DNA of 64,000 nucleotides from Minisyncoccota bacterium (GTDB lineage Bacteria > Patescibacteriota > Minisyncoccia > Phycocordibacterales > Zambryskibacteraceae), in NCBI GenBank assembly GCA_020059045.1, contig JAGVCW010000029.1, positions 39,469 to 103,468 on the forward strand, given 5' to 3'. This document shows positions 2,970 through 52,243 of this stretch, piece after piece. Numbering within the stretch: position 1 is the first letter of the stretch; each line of letters opens with the position of its first letter. The translations under genes and the position numbers were made by a program. The notes beneath the pieces were generated by a model. That model was given only the letters and a program-made list of their open reading frames with translations, was not told the DNA's origin and did no database searches.

Positions 2970-3737
2970 TTGCGATCAAATCTATATATAATCAAGTATA
3001 TGGACTCTAAAAATGAGGAGGGGCACCTACATCCACTTACACATATAATCCAAAAAACGGGAAGTATTTTTCGTGAAATGGGTTTTTCTGTTGCTACGGG
3101 CCCAGAAATAGAGACTGAATATTACAATTTTGATGCTCTAAATATTCCCAGCTATCACCCTGCACGTGATATGTGGGATACGTTTTGGTTAAAATCTGAT
3201 GAGACAAAGAAGCTTCTTCGTACGCACACATCTCCAGTACAAGTTCGCTATGCAGAGACACACGAGCCGCCCATCCGGGTTATTGTTCCGGGAAAAACGT
3301 ATAGGCATGAAGCGACAGATGCAACGCATGAAGCACAGTTCTATCAACTAGAGGGGCTTATGATTGAGAAAGAAGTGTCACTTGCGAATCTCAAATGGGT
3401 ACTAGAAACATATTTTGAAAAACTTTTTGACTCTAAAACTTCAGTTCGATTTCGTCCGAGCTACTTTCCGTTTGTAGAACCAGGTGTGGAAATTGATATG
3501 TCGTGCTTTAAGTGTAATGGCAATGGCTGTACAACGTGTAAAAGTACTGGTTGGATTGAGATTATGGGGGCCGGGATGGTACACCCCAAGGTTTTGGCCG
3601 CTATGAAAATTGACTCAAGGAAGTATAAGGGCTTTGCTTTTGGTGGTGGGATAGATCGGCTTGCCATGCTTAAGTTTGGTATTCCAGATGTGCGCAGCCT
3701 GTATCATTCTGATTTACGCTTAATTAATCAGTTTTAG
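2970..3737 (+). CDS. pheS: Phenylalanine--tRNA ligase alpha subunit (short form, catalytic core only)
   Basis: FSVATGPEIE…YHPARDMWDTFW…GGGIDRLAML class-II motifs. Only 255 aa, so the usual N-terminal coiled-coil/tRNA-contact region is absent. Confidence 0.85.
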   Translation: MRSNLYIIKYMDSKNEEGHLHPLTHIIQKTGSIFREMGFSVATGPEIETEYYNFDALNIPSYHPARDMWDTFWLKSDETKKLLRTHTSPVQVRYAETHEPPIRVIVPGKTYRHEATDATHEAQFYQLEGLMIEKEVSLANLKWVLETYFEKLFDSKTSVRFRPSYFPFVEPGVEIDMSCFKCNGNGCTTCKSTGWIEIMGAGMVHPKVLAAMKIDSRKYKGFAFGGGIDRLAMLKFGIPDVRSLYHSDLRLINQF

Positions 3738-6080
3738 ATGAAAATTTCCTACAAATGGTTAGAAACATACTTTGATAGCCCCCTTCCCTCTTCAGAAAAG
3801 ATTTCGGAATTATTAACCATACATGCATTTGAGGTTGAAGGAATTGAGAGCCAAAATGGTGATTCAATTTTAAACATAAAAGTACTTCCCGATAGAGCAC
3901 ATGATGCTCTCTCGCATCTTGGCATGGCAAGGGAAGTGGCTCTACTTACTGGGCTACAAATTAAAAATGAGTTTATAAAGCAGAAGGTTGGTGTATTCCC
4001 AGAGTCAAATATCGCAAGAATAGAAGTTGAAAATGAAAAATTATTTCCAAGGCTTACACTGCTAGTAATTGAGAATGTTCGGGTCAACGAGAGTCCAGTA
4101 TGGTTGAGAGAGAGATTGGATTCCATAGGCCAAAAGTCAATAAACAATATTGTAGATGCCACCAATTTTGTAATGTTTGAAATTGGCCAGCCGCTGCATG
4201 CGTATGATGTTTCTAAGCTTGCCGGTGAGGGAGATATAAAAATAGGGGTACGCTACGCAAATGAGGGTGAAATACTTAAAACACTTGACGGTAAGGATCT
4301 TGTCCTAAATAAAGAAAATGTAGTCATATTTGATGGAAACACTGAAAATAAAAAGGCTTTGGGAGTCGCAGGGATAAAGGGTGGGGAGGCAAGCAAGATA
4401 AATTCAAAGACAAAAACTGTTGTCATAGAAGCGGCGAATTTTGACCCAGTGGCAATAAGGCTTTCATCCAAGTCTCTTGACCTACGTACTGATGCATCAG
4501 TCCGATTTGAAAATGGTATTACACCTGAATACACAGCGAGTGCTCTAAGTAGGGTTGCAAACATAATTCTTGATATTGCGAGCAATACAGACACTCGAGT
4601 GGAAGGGATAGCAGATTACTATCCTCGACGTGCAAATCCCTATAAAGTAGGAGTATCGCTTTCAGAAATACAAAGTGTAATTGGCACACAAGTCTCTCAA
4701 AATAAAGTTGAGGAAATTCTTCAGAGGAGAGGATATGAGTGGAAACTTGTAACACCTCGAGAGGAAATTGTGTCTCTTGCACAGAAACTAATTGGCATGC
4801 CCTATAAATTTGGCTCAAGTGTTACATATGACAGTCCAAGAACTTTTGATTGTTCTTCTTTTGTAAGTTATTTGTTTGTTCAGACGGGCATAGCGCTTCC
4901 TAGGATGACAGTTGATCAGTTTGTGTATACAGAGCAAGTTTTGGAAAGTGAATTACAGGATGGAGATTTAGTTTTTATAAATAGTAATGATGGAAAGATT
5001 CACCATGAATCAATAGAGTTTATGCAAGGTACTCCTGTACCGAAAGGTGTAGATCATAACGGAATATATGCAGGAGAGGGAAGTATTATTCATGGGTCAC
5101 CATTTCACAATAAAATCGTAAAGGAGAATATTAGTGAGGTGGTGAGTAGAGGCAGAACTCTTGTGGGCTATAGAAGAGTGTTGGGAATAAATGAGCCTCA
5201 CTTTGTGATTACAATACCCGCCGAGCGTCTAGACTTACGTATAAAAGAAGATTTAATTGAGGAAATAGTAAGAATTTATGGTTATGAAAACATAATTTCA
5301 AAAGAAATTAAAACAGAGGAAGCCGTAAATATTGATAAAAAATCTTATTATATAGAAAAAATAAAAAACTTCTTTGTTTCAGAGGGTTTTTCTGAGATCT
5401 ATTCATATTCATTCAAATCAAGAGGTGTAAGAGAAGTACTTAATCCCATTGCAACCAATAAGGCATTCCTCAGGGAAAATTTGGCTGACGAATTGAAAGA
5501 TGTTATGAAAAAAAACATTTTGAATACTGATCTACTTGGTTTGAGTAAAATTAAACTTTTTGAAATAGGTACAGTTTTCGGCGCAACAAGTGAGAATATA
5601 TCCCTGGCTTTTGCTATAAGTGGGAAGAAGGATGAAGCTTATATAGAGAAAATTAAATCTGCTCTTAATGATTTGCTTCAATCTGAGGTTGTTTATACCG
5701 AAAAGGGAGGGGTAATGGAGGCAAATATCGAGACTCCAATTGAGCGGGCAAATGGTCCACTTCATCCGTATGCATATAAAGGTAGTAAAAATGTAAAATT
5801 TAAGGAATATTCAGTATATCCATTTATTGTTCGAGATTTAGCTGTTTTCGTACCAAATGATTTGCCAAAAGATGCATTGCTCGATTTGATTCGGAAAGAA
5901 GCTGGGGAGCTATTGGTTAACTTGCGTTTGTTTGATGAATTTTCGAAAGATGGAAAAGTTTCTTATGCATATCGTCTTATATTCCAGTCAATAGATAGAA
6001 CTCTTACTGATGAGGAGGTGAATAGTGTTATGACAAAAATTGTGGGTGCGGTGACAGGAATGGGCTGGACTGTAAGATAA
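3738..6080 (+). CDS. pheT: Phenylalanine--tRNA ligase beta subunit with an inserted NlpC/P60 papain-like domain
   Basis: N-terminus MKISYKWLETYF… matches the B1 domain. B5 domain signature (…EEIVRIYGYENI) and a C-terminal FDX-ACB-like end. About 150 aa NlpC/P60-like insert (GMPYKFG…FDCSSFVSYLF…GDLVFINS…VDHNGIYAGEGSIIHGSP) sits inside B5. Confidence 0.9.
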   Translation: MKISYKWLETYFDSPLPSSEKISELLTIHAFEVEGIESQNGDSILNIKVLPDRAHDALSHLGMAREVALLTGLQIKNEFIKQKVGVFPESNIARIEVENEKLFPRLTLLVIENVRVNESPVWLRERLDSIGQKSINNIVDATNFVMFEIGQPLHAYDVSKLAGEGDIKIGVRYANEGEILKTLDGKDLVLNKENVVIFDGNTENKKALGVAGIKGGEASKINSKTKTVVIEAANFDPVAIRLSSKSLDLRTDASVRFENGITPEYTASALSRVANIILDIASNTDTRVEGIADYYPRRANPYKVGVSLSEIQSVIGTQVSQNKVEEILQRRGYEWKLVTPREEIVSLAQKLIGMPYKFGSSVTYDSPRTFDCSSFVSYLFVQTGIALPRMTVDQFVYTEQVLESELQDGDLVFINSNDGKIHHESIEFMQGTPVPKGVDHNGIYAGEGSIIHGSPFHNKIVKENISEVVSRGRTLVGYRRVLGINEPHFVITIPAERLDLRIKEDLIEEIVRIYGYENIISKEIKTEEAVNIDKKSYYIEKIKNFFVSEGFSEIYSYSFKSRGVREVLNPIATNKAFLRENLADELKDVMKKNILNTDLLGLSKIKLFEIGTVFGATSENISLAFAISGKKDEAYIEKIKSALNDLLQSEVVYTEKGGVMEANIETPIERANGPLHPYAYKGSKNVKFKEYSVYPFIVRDLAVFVPNDLPKDALLDLIRKEAGELLVNLRLFDEFSKDGKVSYAYRLIFQSIDRTLTDEEVNSVMTKIVGAVTGMGWTVR

Positions 6081-10157: not shown

Positions 10158-10790
10158 TTAAAACTCCCTCGTTTCACCCTCGATGAAAGGTATGAATGCT
10201 ATTCCTTGAGGGGGGAGAAGCTCTGCTGGTATTCTGTGATCAAGACCGGAGCGCTTAAAGTCGTGTACTGGAAATGCAACTTTTGGTTGCAGCTCGAGAG
10301 CGTAATCTACTGAGTCAGAAATACGGAGCCAAGGTCCTGTTACTGGCAGGGCCAAAATTTCTATCGGTCTTTCCGGATTCGTAAATGAATCTCCGGGATA
10401 CCACAAACGCCCATCAATAAAAAAACCTGTATTTTCTGAAACAGGGATTGCGGTGTGAACCACTGCATGCTTCTCGCCAATTCCTACAAGACTAATTCCG
10501 CCAAGATCTGCCTTGTCCAAATGTTTAATTAAGACATGCTCTATTTTCTCGGCACTTAGAAGTTTGCTCACAGAAGTGTTTGCGTGTATTACCACATTCG
10601 GGTTGTTACTCACCACCTTCTTCAATGATACTAAGTGAAAATGATCTTGATGCTCGTGTGTGAAGAGAACATAATCCAAGTTTTTTATTTTAGAGTGAGT
10701 TTCTACACTATAACTTCCAGGGTCAGTAAGTATCCGCTTGCCCTTGGTCTCTATTAGCAAACAACATTGTCCTAGTTTGGTTATTCTCAT
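10158..10790 (-). CDS. MBL-fold metallo-hydrolase
   Basis: HxHxDH motif (THEHQDHFH) plus downstream His/Asp ligands. Confidence 0.7.
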   Translation of the reverse strand: MRITKLGQCCLLIETKGKRILTDPGSYSVETHSKIKNLDYVLFTHEHQDHFHLVSLKKVVSNNPNVVIHANTSVSKLLSAEKIEHVLIKHLDKADLGGISLVGIGEKHAVVHTAIPVSENTGFFIDGRLWYPGDSFTNPERPIEILALPVTGPWLRISDSVDYALELQPKVAFPVHDFKRSGLDHRIPAELLPPQGIAFIPFIEGETREF

Positions 10791-12016
10791 TATTTTTTTG
10801 AAGAAATTTCTTCAAGTAACTTTCTTGTGAAATCTCCTGTGCTTAATTGTCCAAGATTACCATTGTCACGTGACTCAACTTGTACTTTGTTTGCTTCAAT
10901 CTCCTTATCTCCGATGATAAGAATGTAAGGAACCTTTTCTGTTTTTACATTTCGGATTTTCTTGCCGAGAGTTTCATTGCTTTCATCAAGCTCAACACGG
11001 ATACCAGCTGTTTGTAAGTCACTAAAAATTTTCTTCGCATATTCGAGATGAGCTTCTGCAATTGGAAGTATTTTAGCCTGCACGGGTGAGAGCCAGAGCG
11101 GGAAAGCTCCCGAATATTTCTCTATTAGGAAAGCCATAATACGCTCGATTGCACCAATTGAAGAACGATGAACCACAAAAGCAGAATGTTCCTTACCATC
11201 TTCGCCCATATATTTGAGATCAAATCTATGTGGAGAAGAAAGATCGTATTGAACAGTGAAGGCAGTATCTTCCTTGCCATTGGCATTCCTCATGTTTATG
11301 TCAATCTTTGGGCCGTAAAAAGCTGCATCGTCTGAGGCTTCTTTGAAATCTACCTTGCGCTTCTTCATCGCTTCTCGAAGAAGGTTTTCCGCTTTTTCCC
11401 ATCCAGCATCGTCTTTATAGTATTTTTCTGTATTACTACGATCTCCTAGTGAAAGTACATACCAATAATCTTTGCCAAGTTCAAGATTAAATATGCTGTT
11501 GACATACTCAATAAGATCCAATGCTTTAGCAATTTCGTCCACGGCTTGTTCCTCGTCTTTACATATAATATGGGCATCAGACAGACAAAAAGCACGTACT
11601 CTAAGAAGCCCCATAAGTTCTCCAGACTGCTCGTAGCGATAAAGCTGAGCAAGTTCAGCTATTCGCACGGGAAGATCACGGTAAGAGCGAGGCTTCGATA
11701 GGTAGAGTTCGAAGTGATGAGGACAAGTCATTGGTCTTAGCATAAATTCTTCGTCATCAATCACAATGGGGGCGTACATCTTGTCTTTATACATTGGGTA
11801 ATGACCAGATTTTTTGTACAGATCAAGCTTAGCGATATCAGGTGTACGTACATGCAAATAACCTCGACGTATTTCCTCGTCGATAATAAAACGCTCAAGC
11901 TCTCGTCGAACTGTCGCACCCTTCGGAAGCCAAATAGGAAGTCCCTTTCCTATTGCGTCAGAAAAAGTGAAAAGTTCAAGCTCCCTTCCAATTTTTTTAT
12001 GATCCCTTTCCTCCAT
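10790..12016 (-). CDS. thrS: Threonine--tRNA ligase, catalytic plus anticodon-binding domains only (no N-terminal TGS/editing domains)
   Basis: Class-II core with zinc-site residues (MTCPHHFELY). C-terminal HGPT-like anticodon-binding domain. 408 aa, versus about 640 aa for canonical ThrRS. Confidence 0.85.
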   Translation of the reverse strand: MEERDHKKIGRELELFTFSDAIGKGLPIWLPKGATVRRELERFIIDEEIRRGYLHVRTPDIAKLDLYKKSGHYPMYKDKMYAPIVIDDEEFMLRPMTCPHHFELYLSKPRSYRDLPVRIAELAQLYRYEQSGELMGLLRVRAFCLSDAHIICKDEEQAVDEIAKALDLIEYVNSIFNLELGKDYWYVLSLGDRSNTEKYYKDDAGWEKAENLLREAMKKRKVDFKEASDDAAFYGPKIDINMRNANGKEDTAFTVQYDLSSPHRFDLKYMGEDGKEHSAFVVHRSSIGAIERIMAFLIEKYSGAFPLWLSPVQAKILPIAEAHLEYAKKIFSDLQTAGIRVELDESNETLGKKIRNVKTEKVPYILIIGDKEIEANKVQVESRDNGNLGQLSTGDFTRKLLEEISSKK

Positions 12017-12232
12017 TTTTGTTTAAATTAAAACGCCCTAGTAAATGCACAACAGCAGAGTTGTGAACTTACTAGGACGAATTATCGCGGTTCCACCTAG
12101 TTTCCTTTGCCTATTATTAGGTAAAAGCTCTCTTTTTAAAGAATTAGGCTTTCGCTCCATTTCAGGACTGTGGTTGGTAGCCACAACAATCTTCTTTGTT
12201 CCTTAATAATAAGAAAAAGATCTTTAGATGTC
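12017..12232 (-). promoter_or_regulatory. T-box riboswitch leader (Thr specifier, ACC) upstream of thrS
   Basis: Minus-strand GGUGGAACCGCG (T-box consensus GGUGGUACCGCG) at 12097-12108. Terminator hairpin CCUAGUAAGUUCAC…GUGCAUUUACUAGG plus U-run at 12021-12077 directly before the thrS ATG. Upstream stem GUGG/CCAC with loop CUACCAA displays ACC followed by a purine. Confidence 0.6.
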
Positions 12233-12234
12233 AA

Positions 12235-15200
12235 TCAAAGAACTTTTGCTTTCTCAATTATTATACTTGTCTCGTCGTTTCTCTTGGAGACCTTACCAAC
12301 TAAAGCAATAATTTTATCAGCAACGAAAATATCTTTATGGGTTTCTAGTGTTTTCGGGAACACGACAGCTTCGATGTTTCCAGTAAAGTCTGATATTTTT
12401 ATAAAAAGCATTCTCTGGTTTTGTTTGGTGAGAATTTCACGACAATTTTCTATAAGCCCGGCAATCATAACTTCTTGTCCTTCCTTCGACTCTGTTTTAA
12501 TTTTCGCTATGTTTATATCTCGTTTCTCAATCTTTTCTCTGTGTGCTTCCAGAGGATGGCCGGAAATGTATAGGCCCAAGAGCTCTTTTTCCCAGGCAAG
12601 GAGCTCTATCATTGTGGCGCTCTGCGCGGGTGGTAGTGAAATGCTTACATCAGATGTTCCAAACAAAGAATCCTGGTTGCCACCATCTACAATTCTTGAT
12701 TTGTGATACTCCAGCAGTAAATCAATATTTGAAAGCATTTGACCGCGCTCACCAAACTCGTCTAAGGCACCGCACTTTATAAGCGACTCAAGAGATTTCT
12801 TGTTTAGGTTTCTATCTTTGATTCGATCAAGAAAGTCAGCAAGTGATTTAAATTTTCCTGCAGATTTCCTCTCTTTCACTATTGTGTTTGCTATTCCTTC
12901 GCCAAAATTTTTGATAGTTGTGAGGCCAAATCGAATCGTATCTGGCGCATGTTCTTTACGAGCAACAGAAAATCCTTGGAAGCTTTCATTGACTGAGGGA
13001 GGAAGCACTGGGATGCCCAGACGCTTGCATTCGTTTATTAGGATACCAATCTTTTCAACTTCACCTGAGTCCGCAGTCAAAACTGCAGACATGTAAATTG
13101 CAGGCCAGTTCGCTTTGAGATAGGCGGTTTGGTATGCCACGCGCCCATAACTTGCGGCGTGTGCTTTGTTGAATCCATAAGATTGGAATGGTTCAAAAAG
13201 CTTCCACATCATTTCTGCAAATGCTTTAGTTTGTCCGTTCTTCTTTATCCCCTCAATAAACTTTTCCTTTTGGGCAGCCATTTCTGCTGGGATTTTCTTA
13301 CCGACGGCTTTTCTGAATTTGTCTACCTCAAGCCAGCTATATCCAGCAAGTTCGAGAGCCGAGAAAAGAAGATCATCTTGGTACACGAGAAGACCGTAGG
13401 ATTCCTTCAGGAATTTCTCCATTCGTGGGTCGGGGTACGAAACAAGCTTTGGGTTGTTCTTTCTTTTTATATAATCGGGTATTACCTCCATTGGTCCGGG
13501 ACGGTAAAGAGCAACCATAGCATTTATATCGTGGATAGAAGTCGGCTTGAGGTCGACAAGAAAGCGAGTCATACCCGCACCACTTAATTGGAAAAGACCT
13601 TCTGTGTCACCTCGAGCAAGAAGTTCAAATGTTTTCTTGTCATCGAGAGGTATTGTGTCAATGTCTATAACAAGCTTTTCTATTGTTTCAATTCTATGTA
13701 TTGCGTCAGCTATGATTGCAAGATTTTTGATACCCAGGAAGTCAAATTTGAGAAGGCCTGCATCTTCTATGGCATACATATCATATTGAGTAATGATTTT
13801 GCCTTCACCCTTTGGGTCAAATTGTAGAGGAACGAAGTTTGTGAGGGGCTCCGGTGAAATAACCACGCCTGCCGCGTGTACTGAGATGTGACGAGCACAA
13901 CCTTCAATCTTTTTACCCATGTCGATGATTGCTTTCACGTCCACATCCTTCTCGTAAAGTTCTTTCAACTCAGGCACAAGTGTAAAAGCTCGCTTAATAG
14001 TCATGGGGAAACCCTGTGAGCCAAGGGGAATAAGTTTGGCAACTTTGTCACCTGTAATATATGGATAGCCAAGTGCGCGTGCGACATCACGTACCACACC
14101 TCGAGCAAGCATTGTTCCAAATGTTCCAATTTGGGCTACCATTTCTCTACCATACTTTTGTCTTGCGTACTCGATCATCTCGTCACGGCGGTCGTCAGCA
14201 ATATCAAGGTCAATATCTGGAGCACTAGGTCGCTCAGGATTTAGAAATCTTTCAAACGGGAGTTTGTAGTCTAATGGGTCAACTGTTGTAATAAATGTTA
14301 AAAAGGAAACAATCGAGCCAGCAACGGAGCCTCGAGTGTTTGTCAAAATTTTGTTCTCACGGGCATAACGGATTAGGTCTGCCATTACGAGGAAGTATGG
14401 TGAAAACCCTTTGTTCTTTATCACCTCTAGTTCGTACTCGATTCTTTCTTTAATCTCTTGTGTTTCAATCAAGTTCCTCTTCTCCAAACCTTCGTAGACT
14501 AAACGCCTGAGCTCGCTATCGTACGTTCTACCTTCCGGAATTGTGTAGATGGGAAATACCCATGATCCAAGTTCAAGTTTAAGATTGCAGACATTTACTA
14601 TTTTTTCAACGTTATCAAGAGCCTCGGGCATACTCTTGAAATATTCTCTAGCCACTTTCTGTGATATGAAAGAAAAGTCCTCGTTACCGTCATTCCAATT
14701 GCGGTCTTTGTCACCAATGTTTTGAACAGCTACCAGAGTGTCGCGAGCCTTCTTATCTTCAGGGTCAATGTAGTAGACATCGTGAGCAGCAACTATTTGT
14801 GTACCCGTTTCTTTGGCAAGTGAAACAAGCTTTTCCATTTGTGCTGTGTGGTTATCTATCTCCGGGTGGTGGGTTATCTCAATGTAGAAATCGTCTCCAA
14901 AAACTTTTTTGTACCAACCTATGAGCTCTTTTGCTTTTGCAGTATCAGAGCCCTGCATGGCTTTCGCAATATCGCCAGAAAATGATGGAGAAATGCAGAT
15001 TAGTCCGGCAGAACTAGCTTCAAGTAAGTCTTTGTCTATACGAGGTTTGTAGTAGAAGCCTTCAATATGCGATTTTGTCACTAAATTAATAAGATTCCTA
15101 TAACCAGTAGCATCTTTAGCAAGAAGTACGAGTCTGTAGCGTGAACTATCAACGCCTGCTTGCTTGTCACTCATTTTGCGCAGGGCAAGATACGCATCAA

Positions 15201-15411
15201 TTCCGAGGATGGGCTTCAGACCTTCGTCTAGACACTCTTTATAGAATTCTATGGCTCCGTATAGATTGCCATTGTCAGTGAGAGCGAGAGCCTTCATGCC
15301 GTCCTCCTTGGCAGATTTCACTAGATCGGGGATCTTCGGTAGGGCACTCAGGAGACTGTAGTGGCTGTGGGTATGGAGATGGGTAAAATTCTTCATGGTA
15401 TTTGCGAACAT
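12235..15411 (-). CDS. dnaE: DNA polymerase III alpha subunit
   Basis: PHP domain HLHTHSHYSLL at the N-terminus. Pol III alpha core motifs. C-terminal OB domain. Confidence 0.9.
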   Translation of the reverse strand: MFANTMKNFTHLHTHSHYSLLSALPKIPDLVKSAKEDGMKALALTDNGNLYGAIEFYKECLDEGLKPILGIDAYLALRKMSDKQAGVDSSRYRLVLLAKDATGYRNLINLVTKSHIEGFYYKPRIDKDLLEASSAGLICISPSFSGDIAKAMQGSDTAKAKELIGWYKKVFGDDFYIEITHHPEIDNHTAQMEKLVSLAKETGTQIVAAHDVYYIDPEDKKARDTLVAVQNIGDKDRNWNDGNEDFSFISQKVAREYFKSMPEALDNVEKIVNVCNLKLELGSWVFPIYTIPEGRTYDSELRRLVYEGLEKRNLIETQEIKERIEYELEVIKNKGFSPYFLVMADLIRYARENKILTNTRGSVAGSIVSFLTFITTVDPLDYKLPFERFLNPERPSAPDIDLDIADDRRDEMIEYARQKYGREMVAQIGTFGTMLARGVVRDVARALGYPYITGDKVAKLIPLGSQGFPMTIKRAFTLVPELKELYEKDVDVKAIIDMGKKIEGCARHISVHAAGVVISPEPLTNFVPLQFDPKGEGKIITQYDMYAIEDAGLLKFDFLGIKNLAIIADAIHRIETIEKLVIDIDTIPLDDKKTFELLARGDTEGLFQLSGAGMTRFLVDLKPTSIHDINAMVALYRPGPMEVIPDYIKRKNNPKLVSYPDPRMEKFLKESYGLLVYQDDLLFSALELAGYSWLEVDKFRKAVGKKIPAEMAAQKEKFIEGIKKNGQTKAFAEMMWKLFEPFQSYGFNKAHAASYGRVAYQTAYLKANWPAIYMSAVLTADSGEVEKIGILINECKRLGIPVLPPSVNESFQGFSVARKEHAPDTIRFGLTTIKNFGEGIANTIVKERKSAGKFKSLADFLDRIKDRNLNKKSLESLIKCGALDEFGERGQMLSNIDLLLEYHKSRIVDGGNQDSLFGTSDVSISLPPAQSATMIELLAWEKELLGLYISGHPLEAHREKIEKRDINIAKIKTESKEGQEVMIAGLIENCREILTKQNQRMLFIKISDFTGNIEAVVFPKTLETHKDIFVADKIIALVGKVSKRNDETSIIIEKAKVL

Positions 15412-17134: not shown

Positions 17135-18034
17135 ATGGCAAATCGTCACTTGGCAAGATCGGTTGTTCTACAGTCACTCTTTGAATGGGACTTTAGCAAA
17201 AAGTCCTCGGATGGTGCTATGGAAATACTTGCACGTGATGCAGAGGAGTTTGCTCCAGGCATGAAAGACACTTCTTTCATGAATGATCTTCTTAAGGGAA
17301 TTCTCGGTAAGCTCAAAGATATTGATGCGATTATTAAGAAGGCAGCACCCGACTGGCCAATTGAGAAAATATCGATAATTGATAGAAATATTCTAAGACT
17401 TGGGCTCTTTGAACTTCTTTTTTCAGATAGAGAGCAGGTCCCACCAAAAGTGGCTATAAATGAAGCAATTGAACTTGCCAAATCTTTTGGTGGAGAGACA
17501 TCTGGTAAGTTTGTAAATGGTGTTCTGGGTGCCGTGTACAAAGAGATGGGTGAACCCGGCAAAGACGCAGTATCTACGCGAAAAAAGAACAATAGAGATA
17601 TCCCAGATAGTGAATTACCGGTAGAAAATTACGGTGGGGCGATAGTATATGCAAGTGAGAAAAATAAAATATTTGTTGCTTTTGTTCATGATGTGTTTGG
17701 GCACTGGACAATATCGAAAGGTCACCTAGAGAGTGGTGAGGATGTAGAAGTGGGAGTAAGACGTGTGATCGAAGATGAACTCGGACTTGTGATAAATCTC
17801 AAAGAAAAGATTGGTGAAAATGCTTATGTGGCCTATGATCCAGATAAAGGGAAAATAAAGAAGCGTGTAACATATTATTTGGCGGATTGTAAGTTTGGTG
17901 AGCTCAAAGCGCCAAAAGGTGGTGGATTAGATGATATAAGATGGTTTGAAGTTGGGGATATTGGAGATCTAAACTTCTATGATGACATCTTGCCATTAGT
18001 GACAAAAGGGGTGACAATGCTGCCCAACAAATAG
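17135..18034 (+). CDS. nusB: NusB antitermination factor fused to a C-terminal NUDIX hydrolase domain
   Basis: N-terminal 140 aa is NusB (RHLARSVVLQSLFEWD…). C-terminal 150 aa carries a Nudix box (GHLESGEDVEVGVRRVIEDELGL, i.e. Gx5Ex7R[EV]xxEExGU). Confidence 0.8.
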   Translation: MANRHLARSVVLQSLFEWDFSKKSSDGAMEILARDAEEFAPGMKDTSFMNDLLKGILGKLKDIDAIIKKAAPDWPIEKISIIDRNILRLGLFELLFSDREQVPPKVAINEAIELAKSFGGETSGKFVNGVLGAVYKEMGEPGKDAVSTRKKNNRDIPDSELPVENYGGAIVYASEKNKIFVAFVHDVFGHWTISKGHLESGEDVEVGVRRVIEDELGLVINLKEKIGENAYVAYDPDKGKIKKRVTYYLADCKFGELKAPKGGGLDDIRWFEVGDIGDLNFYDDILPLVTKGVTMLPNK

Positions 18035-50914: not shown

Positions 50915-52243
50915 ATGTCTATAGAACCGAGGTTAGCATCAGGAATGAGAGACTATCTGCCTGAGGATATGATTCCTCGACAGAGAATGCTTGATAGGAT
51001 TCGAATTGTGTTCGAGTCGTTTGGTTTTGCTCCGCTCGACACACCGGGTCTTGAGCTCGAGGAAATCATCACAGGTGGTGATCCCAACTTTCGAATGCAG
51101 ATCTTTCGTGCAGGCTTGCGTGGTGGGGATGAAGAGAAACTTGCTCTTCGTTTCGATCTGACAATTCCACTTGCAAGAGTGGTTGCTCAATACGGCAGTC
51201 AATTGGAGCGCCCGTTCAAGCGCTACCAGATGGGTAAAGTATGGAGAGGTGAGAAACCTCAGGCTGGAAGGTTTAGGGAGTTTGTGCAATTGGATGCTGA
51301 TACCATTGGCTCAAGTATGATGACTGCCGATGCGGAGATCATTGCACTTATGTATGAAACAATGTGTGCGCTTGGCTTCAGCAACTTCCTAATGAGAGTA
51401 AACAATCGCAAGATTCTGAACGGCTTGTCTGAGTTCGTCGGGTTTGATAGTAAAATAATTCCCGATGTTTTGAGGATTATCGACAAGTTGGATAAGGACG
51501 GATGGGATGCAATTTCGGAAGAATTGGTGAAGGACCAAGCTTTCTCTCCTGAACAACTCTCCTTGTTAAAGCAGTTTCTCGATTTTCGTGCTATTAGCCA
51601 ACGAGCAACTATTGATGGTGTGAGGAAGCTAATGGCTAACTCACAAATGGCACAGGAGGGAATTGGGGAGCTAGAGGAGATTGTCTCATCTCTTGAAGCA
51701 ATGGGAATTCCCGACGACAAGTGGACCATTGATCTATCTGTTGCGCGTGGACTGGGTTACTACACTGGTCCTGTTTATGAAACAGTACTAACGGATGCTC
51801 CTGAGATCGGTAGTGTTTTCGGGGGAGGAAGGTATGATAACCTTGTCGCTCGATTTAGCTCTACGAGCGTGCCCGCAGTAGGGGTCTCAGCAGGTGTGGA
51901 TCGGATGTTTGCGGCAATGACCAAGCTTGGCATGATCAAGAAGGAACAGACCGTTGCCAAAGTTATGGTTCTCAACTTCGATAGCACATGCCGAAGTGAG
52001 TGTGAGAAAGTGGCTTCCTTGGTAAGACGCAGCGGAATCTCGACTGAGATTTATCTCGGGAAGGAGACCACTATCAAAGGACAACTTTCTGTTGCAGTAA
52101 GGAAGGATTACCCAATCGTTGTGATCATCGGCACACGTGAGAAAGAAAAAGGTGTTGCCCAAATAAAACAGCTACAATCGAGAAAGCAAGAGGATGTTCT
52201 ATTGGAAGATGTACCAGATGCGATTAAGAAAATGCTTGAGTGA
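50915..52243 (+). CDS. hisS: Histidine--tRNA ligase
   Basis: Class-II motifs (GMRDYLPE…, FGGGRYDNL). C-terminal anticodon-binding domain is present, so this is not HisZ. Confidence 0.85.
   Translation: MSIEPRLASGMRDYLPEDMIPRQRMLDRIRIVFESFGFAPLDTPGLELEEIITGGDPNFRMQIFRAGLRGGDEEKLALRFDLTIPLARVVAQYGSQLERPFKRYQMGKVWRGEKPQAGRFREFVQLDADTIGSSMMTADAEIIALMYETMCALGFSNFLMRVNNRKILNGLSEFVGFDSKIIPDVLRIIDKLDKDGWDAISEELVKDQAFSPEQLSLLKQFLDFRAISQRATIDGVRKLMANSQMAQEGIGELEEIVSSLEAMGIPDDKWTIDLSVARGLGYYTGPVYETVLTDAPEIGSVFGGGRYDNLVARFSSTSVPAVGVSAGVDRMFAAMTKLGMIKKEQTVAKVMVLNFDSTCRSECEKVASLVRRSGISTEIYLGKETTIKGQLSVAVRKDYPIVVIIGTREKEKGVAQIKQLQSRKQEDVLLEDVPDAIKKMLE

Follow-up and report, generated by a model that had tools for sequence, protein, structure and literature searches.

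A structured leader lies in the 218-nt gap between dnaE and thrS, both on the minus strand of a 64,000-nt stretch of contig JAGVCW010000029.1 from a Minisyncoccota bacterium (the window below means this whole stretch). In our reading, to which we give a probability of about 0.8, the leader would be a T-box-type attenuator of transcription that senses tRNA-Thr and has a non-canonical decoding domain. Judged from its sequence, the element appears to work like a T-box and to be homologous to T-boxes in its 3' half, and it would be a structural variant with a layout that we did not find described rather than a regular member of the Rfam T-box family RF00230. Read along the minus strand, the gap holds a promoter, a structured region, UAGGUGGAACCGCG, a long hairpin and UUUUAAUUU. 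The structured leader spans 12199..12070 (-), about 130 nt, and folding of the whole gap was more stable than that of shuffled sequence (z = -5.1). Conservation with covariation extends over at least 93 distinct sequences of the leader class to which we assign it, and these have different genes upstream. A preliminary description of this DNA had placed a T-box-type leader in the gap, and this was borne out by the T-box core, the UGGAACC bulge, a match to RF00230 (E=3.4e-6) and a score of 89.3 bits with a covariance model of the class. The canonical T-box architecture that it implied did not hold, as Stem I has no counterpart and covariation supports a four-way junction instead.

Discriminator half and terminator

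The 3' half of the leader is a textbook T-box discriminator. The features on either side of the decoding domain are the following:

12206..12234 (-), sigma-70-type promoter: TTGACA 12234..12229, 17-nt spacer, TATTAT 12211..12206; 11/12 match; directly after the dnaE stop
12101..12137 (-), linker: purine string AAAAAGAGAG 12137..12128, Stem III hairpin CUUUUACCUAAUAAUAGGCAAAGG 12127..12104, AAA 12103..12101
12071..12101 (-), antiterminator (T-box proper): helices A1 and A2 flanking a 7-nt bulge; constrained folding free energy -9.3 kcal/mol
12101..12096 with 12076..12071 (-), helix A1 (6 bp): ACUAGG / CCUAGU; class-wide 95.8% paired with 4 covarying pairs
12095..12089 (-), bulge UGGAACC: UGGA is the expected partner of the tRNA 3' NCCA; UGGAACC in 91/92 sequences
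12088..12085 with 12080..12077 (-), helix A2: GCGA / UCGU; G12088•U12077 adjoins the bulge; 98.3% paired class-wide
12025..12079 (-), intrinsic terminator: hairpin 12079..12034, -27.3 kcal/mol, then U-tract UUUUAAUUU 12033..12025; faces thrS

The T-box core UAGGUGGAACCGCG at 12099..12086 (-) agrees at 13 of 14 positions with the published 14-nt consensus AGGGUGGNACCGCG, in which a 7-nt UGGN+ACC bulge lies between A1 and A2 (PMC11297988). A 2020 review (PMC7583486) gives as hallmarks of the discriminator the RRRxG-Stem III-AA motif together with a G•U pair where A2 meets the bulge, and all of the features that it lists for the aminoacylation-sensing domain are present in the window. Within the purine string GAGAG fits RRRxG, Stem III folds with -6.0 kcal/mol, and Rfam aligns the window linker to Stem III of RF00230 with posterior probabilities of at least 0.9. 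Across the class the bulge-proximal pair of A2 is G-C in 68 sequences and G•U in 23. The variable base of UGGN is A in 118 and G in 3 of the matches listed (one G comes from a chance match, L182, considered below). Either base could pair with U, which gives no more than a hint of the U73 discriminator that the preliminary description had expected in tRNA-Thr.

The 5' arm of the terminator (CGUCCUAGU...) consists of the 3' strands of A2 and A1, and terminator and antiterminator are therefore mutually exclusive, as had been proposed. The terminator is far stabler than the antiterminator (-27.3 vs -9.3 kcal/mol), which is the classical T-box relationship. A terminator hairpin followed by a T-tract was found in 89 of 93 leaders, with a median free energy of -31 kcal/mol, a median of 19 pairs and the T-tract about 52 nt past the core. 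In 87 of these 89 the CGYCC segment is covered by the 5' arm of the terminator.

In the window the hairpin ends 17 nt upstream of the thrS AUG, leaving the start codon untouched, and no Shine-Dalgarno sequence was found in the window upstream of this AUG (UUUAAACAAAAAUG). This combination of a missing Shine-Dalgarno sequence and a hairpin clear of the start codon argues for an output that would be transcriptional rather than translational. The specifier of the class sits in an apical loop, and there are precedents for both this arrangement and a short Stem I among translational T-boxes (PMC7583486), which is what would be expected if the element resembled the actinobacterial ileS leaders and controlled ribosome access through an alternative helix. 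With a U-tract following the hairpin in 89 of the 93 leaders, no Shine-Dalgarno sequence to hide and the hairpin ending ahead of the AUG, we judge such a translational switch to be very unlikely.

Transcription most likely starts near 12199, a position predicted from the TTGACA-17-TATTAT element at 12234..12206. A promoter matching at 9/12 or more positions precedes 64 of 99 distinct leaders, and the distance from the end of its -10 element to GAUU is 11-15 nt in 59 of these 64, from which RNA synthesis is expected to start at the base of P1, the outer helix of the decoding domain. A sigma factor of the rpoD type, in keeping with such a promoter, is also encoded in the window.

The position of the promoter bears on the simplest view of the hairpin, namely that the hairpin and U-tract are a plain intrinsic terminator of dnaE and that the T-box-like words are there by chance. 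The hairpin does sit downstream of dnaE and would also stop transcripts reading through from that gene. Against this, a strong promoter separates the dnaE stop from the structure, the 130-nt element before the hairpin is conserved with covariation in the 93 or more sequences with differing upstream genes, and the closest relatives have dnaE–thrS gaps of 10-40 nt without a terminator. The E-values are 3.4e-6 with the Rfam model and 2e-18 with the class model. The preliminary description had argued that the terminator faces thrS and is not a mere dnaE terminator, and with the hairpin at 12079..12034 followed by UUUUAAUUU we agree; chance resemblance at a dnaE terminator can in practice be dismissed.

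Four-helix junction in the decoding half

When the whole 64-kb window was searched at Rfam gathering scores only tRNA-Glu was returned and RF00230 was not. With permissive filters RF00230 matched 12070..12266 at 43.1 bits, the gathering score being 93; E was 3.4e-6 when the whole window was searched and 1.9e-8 when the search covered 351 nt around the gap. The transcript alone (12017..12200) scored 30.3 bits against the same 93 and matched model positions 107-219 only; nothing in it matches Stem I of RF00230 (model positions 1-106). Confidence in the alignment is limited to the part between the Stem III flank and the antiterminator, with the 70-nt Stem I interior deleted and the Stem II/IIA-B part showing posterior probabilities of 0.3-0.4 and broken pairs. 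Its 5' part is an artefact, because it falls on promoter and terminal dnaE sequence, outside the transcript. No other family in Rfam 15 matched the element. The RF00230 search that the preliminary description had proposed as its check thus gave a split result, with the score below threshold and the 3' half aligning well. In the place of Stem I, Stem II and the IIA/B pseudoknot the element has a four-way junction and an apical 7-nt specifier loop, which is why the score is low.

These searches also bear on whether the leader is an ordinary canonical T-box, that is a full RF00230 member having a Stem I with a kink-turn (K-turn), an internal specifier loop and a distal platform. The good match of the 3' half to RF00230 and the presence of a Thr codon and UGGA are what such a T-box would show. 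Scores of 43.1 and 30.3 bits, model positions 1-106 without a counterpart and a 5' match lying on the promoter and dnaE are not, and neither are the other class members, none of which reached the gathering score (0/20 tested) and whose covariation supports another fold. A canonical T-box is on this evidence highly improbable.

The non-canonical decoding domain proposed here comprises the first ~62 nt of the leader, which are modelled as a closed four-helix junction:

12138..12197 (-), P1, outer helix closing the decoding domain: AAAGAA 12197..12192 / UUCUUU 12143..12138
12168..12186 (-), P2, specifier hairpin: UUGUGG 12186..12181 / CCACAG 12173..12168; 7-nt loop CUACCAA 12180..12174
12156..12167 (-), P3, small variable hairpin: UCC 12167..12165 / GGA 12158..12156, loop UGAAAU
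12148..12155 (-), P4, last junction arm: small hairpin GC-GAAA-GC

The Thr codon ACC lies at 12178..12176 (-) in the P2 loop and is followed by A, in agreement with the threonine specifier that had been proposed upstream of thrS. The loop is arranged like the anticodon loop of a tRNA (Y32, U33, NNN, R37, A38) with the Thr codon in the place of the anticodon. Its sequence was CUACCAA in 84, CUACCAC in 6 and CUACGAA in 2 of 92 sequences. In the P2 stem 98% of alignment cells were paired, and double changes were seen in 4 of the 6 pairs. The ACCA of the loop (codon plus conserved A) also resembles a tRNA 3' end and is complementary to the UGG of the T-box bulge.

A hairpin shaped like an anticodon arm in a thrS leader is shared with E. 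coli, where the thrS translational operator is a tRNA-Thr anticodon-arm mimic bound by threonyl-tRNA synthetase (ThrRS), and autoregulation of that type was considered. The loop of the present class holds the triplet ACC or ACG, which is the codon and not the anticodon NGU, so that it is complementary to tRNA-Thr and no mimic of it. An operator would also leave the T-box core, the bulge and the terminator logic unexplained, whereas in the present class the remainder of the leader consists of a T-box discriminator and a terminator. An E. coli-type operator is hardly credible here.

Helix P1 continues above its lower strands with an unpaired GA (12191..12190), which is invariant across the class, UU 12189..12188 opposite AA 12145..12144, a bulged U 12146 and the closing pair G12187-C12147. 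The lower helix covaries (AUCA/UGAU, AUCG/CGAU, GUA/UAC, CUU/AAG), and 85 sequences close the helix with G-C, 4 with C-G. This register (B) was preferred because all 6 of the 6 deviating sequences, the window included, keep Watson-Crick pairs in it, and RNAalifold independently gave the same register; the alternative register A, in which the first GA is bulged, was rejected. All four modelled P3 pairs (4/4) covary across the class, with 89.6% of cells paired, and RNAalifold also predicts this hairpin. The outer pair of P4 is G-C in 39 sequences, C-G in 34 and A-U in 6, and its inner pair is C-G in 62 and G-C in 8.

The junction was assessed by covariation. In a 9-sequence seed 94.6% of cells were paired, as compared to 25-47% when partners were slid by 1-3 columns. 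A covariance model built from this seed, the window included (R1), aligned 100 members, 92 of them distinct, and in this alignment 94.7% of cells were paired against 32-44% slid and 76% shuffled. Double-sided changes numbered 574 against about 201 in the shuffles, and none of 500 shuffles (0/500) reached the observed paired percentage, number of double-change cells or covariation score. Covarying pairs were present in every helix. RNAalifold recovered P1, P2, P3, A1 and A2 from a MAFFT alignment of the seed, and from a 69-sequence alignment (A3) it recovered all of P1-P4 together with both antiterminator helices; 19 of the 27 pairs showed compensatory changes.

Three further structural candidates were rejected. 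By inspection, neither strand orientation of P1 puts tandem G•A pairs beside a 3-nt bulge, which leaves no K-turn. The P3 and P4 loops are too variable for a conserved pseudoknot with the linker. A long-range pairing of 12190..12175 with the T-box region, which appears in the minimum free energy (MFE) fold of the window, relies on the A2 loop, which varies, and other members do not conserve it.

As the window had been in the seed of the first model, a second model (R2) was built from 69 metagenome members only, with the window left out. R2 scored the window at 89.3 bits (E ~2e-18) over the full length 12199..12070, and this was the only match in the 64 kb. None of three models found a second T-box in the window, where pheS and pheT (2970..6080 +) and hisS (50915..52243 +) have no T-box-like leader. 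In the DNA examined the leader class is confined to thrS.

Genes, relatives and distribution of the class

The leader stands between the following genes:

12016..10790 (-), thrS, the regulated gene: 408 aa; domains tRNA-synt_2b and HGTP_anticodon only
10158..10790 (-), metallo-beta-lactamase-fold gene (Lactamase_B_3, 210 aa): start overlaps the thrS stop
15411..12235 (-), dnaE: 1058 aa; PHP, PolIII-alpha, finger, HhH and OB domains; stop codon 12237..12235

The N-terminus of the window ThrRS (MEERDHKKIG) is the start of the catalytic core, and with neither an N1 (TGS) nor an N2 (editing) domain the 408-aa enzyme is as short as had been described. Our literature search returned nothing on ThrRS without an editing domain in the candidate phyla radiation (CPR), within an incomplete coverage. 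The metallo-beta-lactamase-fold gene is probably co-transcribed with thrS, as judged from the overlap of its start with the thrS stop, and would hence be under the same tRNA-Thr leader.

A protein search of GTDB species genomes with the ThrRS gave 272 relatives, and the loci of the best 80 of these were compared (68-84% identity over residues 1-408, ~405-408 aa). All 80 are Patescibacteria, within Parcubacteria/Paceibacteria, with Zambryskibacteria closest. A T-box core was found upstream of thrS in 7 of these 80 loci. The closest relatives (e.g. L001, L003, L007, L009 and L010) have a dnaE–thrS gap of 10-40 nt without leader or terminator. The leader is therefore patchy within the lineage. 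Another group (L002, L004, L005 and L008) has a different conserved promoter-like motif upstream of thrS, CTTTAAATAAG...TTTTCTGGTACTATT. Upstream of thrS the clade thus has at least three arrangements, namely no leader, this other motif or a T-box. Locus L038 carries a T-box core on the opposite strand in GC-rich, coding-looking DNA; the covariance model does not recognise it, and it is regarded as a chance match.

To collect the class more widely a codon-agnostic DNA pattern derived from eight leaders (GATTS-N4-GGCT-NNN-A-N-CC, a gap, then GGTGGNACCGCG) was scanned against metagenomes, giving at least 120 matching contigs. Among the matches listed the free triplet was ACC in 119, ACG in 1 and CGG in 1. 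The CGG case (L182), the sole non-Thr triplet, is a chance match that the covariance model does not recognise, and all genuine members have a Thr codon. ThrRS is encoded downstream in 95 of 120 loci among the matches listed, and most of the others have too little downstream DNA to tell.

Most class members (loci L081-L200, e.g. L085:9715-11517 -) precede a ThrRS of 574-616 aa that has the N2 editing domain (PF07973) and apparently no TGS domain; homologues of this longer form are annotated as Patescibacteria, Parcubacteria, Falkowbacteria and Paceibacterota. A minority precede a 406-435-aa ThrRS lacking both N1 and N2, as in the window. Patescibacteria thus carry two shortened forms of ThrRS. 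As most members precede an N2-bearing ThrRS, the leader is not tied to the truncated enzyme, and the link that the preliminary description had implied falls away. The leader class is a feature of Patescibacteria thrS and is not specific to truncated ThrRS.

The linker varies more than the rest of the discriminator half. Stem III is called indispensable in the literature (PMC7583486), and its hairpin is absent in about 45 of 99 distinct leaders (L022, L027, L091, L137, L170 and ~40 others). These have a 21-30-nt linker with the consensus AAAGAG-AAC-AAA-GUUG that runs into GGUGGAACCGCG and keeps the purine string.

In one metagenome contig two leader copies stand face to face about 170 nt apart (L196:534-664 + and L196:830-966 -) with no thrS found downstream; this inverted pair is probably an inverted-repeat assembly artefact. 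No tRNA-Thr gene was found by ARAGORN in the window or in 200 related loci (1.5 Mb), which yielded 6 tRNA genes, and runs of N in the loci are scaffold gaps and not masked tRNAs. No EF-Tu gene was found in the DNA examined.

Some other features of the window were also recorded. Upstream, rpoB is preceded by rpsP, a gene for a KH-domain protein and trmD and not by the rplK-rplL cluster. The product of pheT (phenylalanyl-tRNA synthetase beta, 780 aa; 3738..6080 +) has an NlpC/P60 peptidase-domain match at residues 353-472 (62 bits against a cutoff of 23), which sits between the B3_4 and a partial B5 domain and is an unusual insertion for this subunit. A single 299-aa open reading frame at 17135..18034 (+) combines an N-terminal NusB with a C-terminal NUDIX hydrolase domain.

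Known systems, proposed mechanism and meaning

Several points weigh against our reading of the leader as a tRNA-Thr-sensing attenuator, in addition to the RF00230 scores of 43.1 and 30.3 bits against 93. Folding of the AT-rich leader sequence of the window by itself does not give the four-way junction as the MFE structure (-7.5 vs -12.2 kcal/mol), and in no more than 49 of 99 members do single-sequence MFE folds have P1 and P2 together. The large alignments were fitted to their own model and so favour the modelled structure. The ACG variants provide no independent test of the specifier, because ACN encodes Thr for any N. The leader is dispensable in the lineage, as the closest relatives do without it. 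Neither an elbow-binding platform nor an S-turn is present in the class, and both are described as needed in transcriptional T-boxes (PMC7583486). The support for the predicted four-way junction is covariation, not thermodynamics.

The patchy distribution (7 of 80 related thrS loci, nearest relatives without a leader) and the thermodynamic weakness of the decoding domain in the window could also mean that the window copy is a decaying relic that has lost its regulation. Every class-conserved position and helix is intact in it, though, and the two places where its P1 departs from the class carry compensatory changes. At 89 bits, its leave-one-out score exceeds that of most class members, and the promoter (11/12) and terminator are intact. 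A relic is accordingly very unlikely.

When compared with canonical transcriptional T-boxes (RF00230; B. subtilis tyrS, thrS and glyQS), the class shares the T-box sequence, the UGGN+ACC bulge, the RRRxG-Stem III-AA motif, a terminator that shares strands with the antiterminator, and a specifier of the NNC type that matches the regulated aminoacyl-tRNA synthetase and has a purine next to it. It is without the long Stem I, the K-turn, the internal specifier loop with S-turn and the AG bulge/distal-loop platform (IDTM, two interdigitated T-loops that bind the tRNA elbow) of canonical T-boxes, and without their Stem II S-turn and IIA/B pseudoknot; P3 and P4 have no conserved AGUA/GAA motif. The codon is instead found in the apical 7-nt loop of a closed four-way junction, and the class occurs in Patescibacteria, not Firmicutes. 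The IIA/B pseudoknot and the Stem II S-turn are known to be absent only from Gly T-boxes. These minimal T-boxes of the glyQS type are likewise compact and terminate transcription without a Stem II domain, but glyQS relies on a long Stem I with an elbow-binding platform and the present class has neither.

Short or 'ultrashort' Stem I elements are described for the translational ('class II') T-boxes of actinobacterial ileS, for which structures from M. tuberculosis are covered (PMC7583486, PMC10651847, PMC11297988). With these the class shares an apical-loop specifier on a short hairpin, the lack of an elbow-binding platform and a conserved discriminator domain. The ileS T-boxes have a linear arrangement of Stem I (K-turn), Stem II (S-turn) and IIA/B (PMC10651847) and act by Shine-Dalgarno sequestration. 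In the present class P1 encloses P2, P3 and P4, no K-turn or S-turn was found, the output element is an intrinsic terminator, and the amino acid is Thr, not Ile, in another phylum.

In T-boxes generally, pairing between codon and anticodon selects the tRNA, and pairing of UGGN with a free NCCA end stabilises the antiterminator (PMC7778990, PMC7583486, PMC11297988). In the mechanism that we propose for the thrS leader, transcription would start at the leader's own sigma-70 promoter just past dnaE, and the first ~62 nt would fold into the P1-P4 junction with P2 presenting ACC. The P2 loop would then pair with the GGU anticodon of tRNA-Thr, probably in a loop-loop kissing contact. The junction may do the geometric job of Stem II and IIA/B by fixing the specifier arm and pointing the 3' strand of P1 at the acceptor end of the tRNA. 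With uncharged tRNA, the 3' NCCA would pair with UGGA, the antiterminator (Stem III purine string, A1 and A2) would be stabilised and transcription would read through into thrS and the metallo-beta-lactamase-fold gene. With charged or absent tRNA, the stabler terminator (-27 vs -9 kcal/mol) would form and transcription would stop at the U-tract.

We lean slightly towards the view that this is a third architectural class of T-box, so far only on Patescibacteria thrS, and one that breaks two generalisations on what T-boxes require. If true, it would be a counter-example to tRNA-elbow contact as a requirement of transcriptional T-boxes and to the indispensability of Stem III. It would also combine an apical-loop specifier, so far tied to translational control, with a terminator and without an elbow platform. 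The picture of T-box function is left as it is, and no special relation to an editing-deficient ThrRS is shown by the finding.

T-boxes are regarded as mainly a Gram-positive feature, and to our knowledge very little RNA-based regulation is documented in Patescibacteria (CPR). The preliminary description had called a T-box in this lineage noteworthy, and our literature search supports this: it returned no report of a T-box or riboswitch in CPR, Patescibacteria or Parcubacteria, with a coverage that is incomplete and leaves room for an earlier description. Standard annotation systematically misses the class, with 0 of 20 members at the Rfam threshold. A compact tRNA-sensing switch of about 130 nt could serve structural work and engineering. 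With its aminoacylation-sensing half nearly unchanged and its anticodon-reading half rebuilt, the class is a natural experiment on which parts of a T-box are essential, and a working-looking T-box placed in Patescibacteria would extend the phylogenetic reach of this form of regulation.

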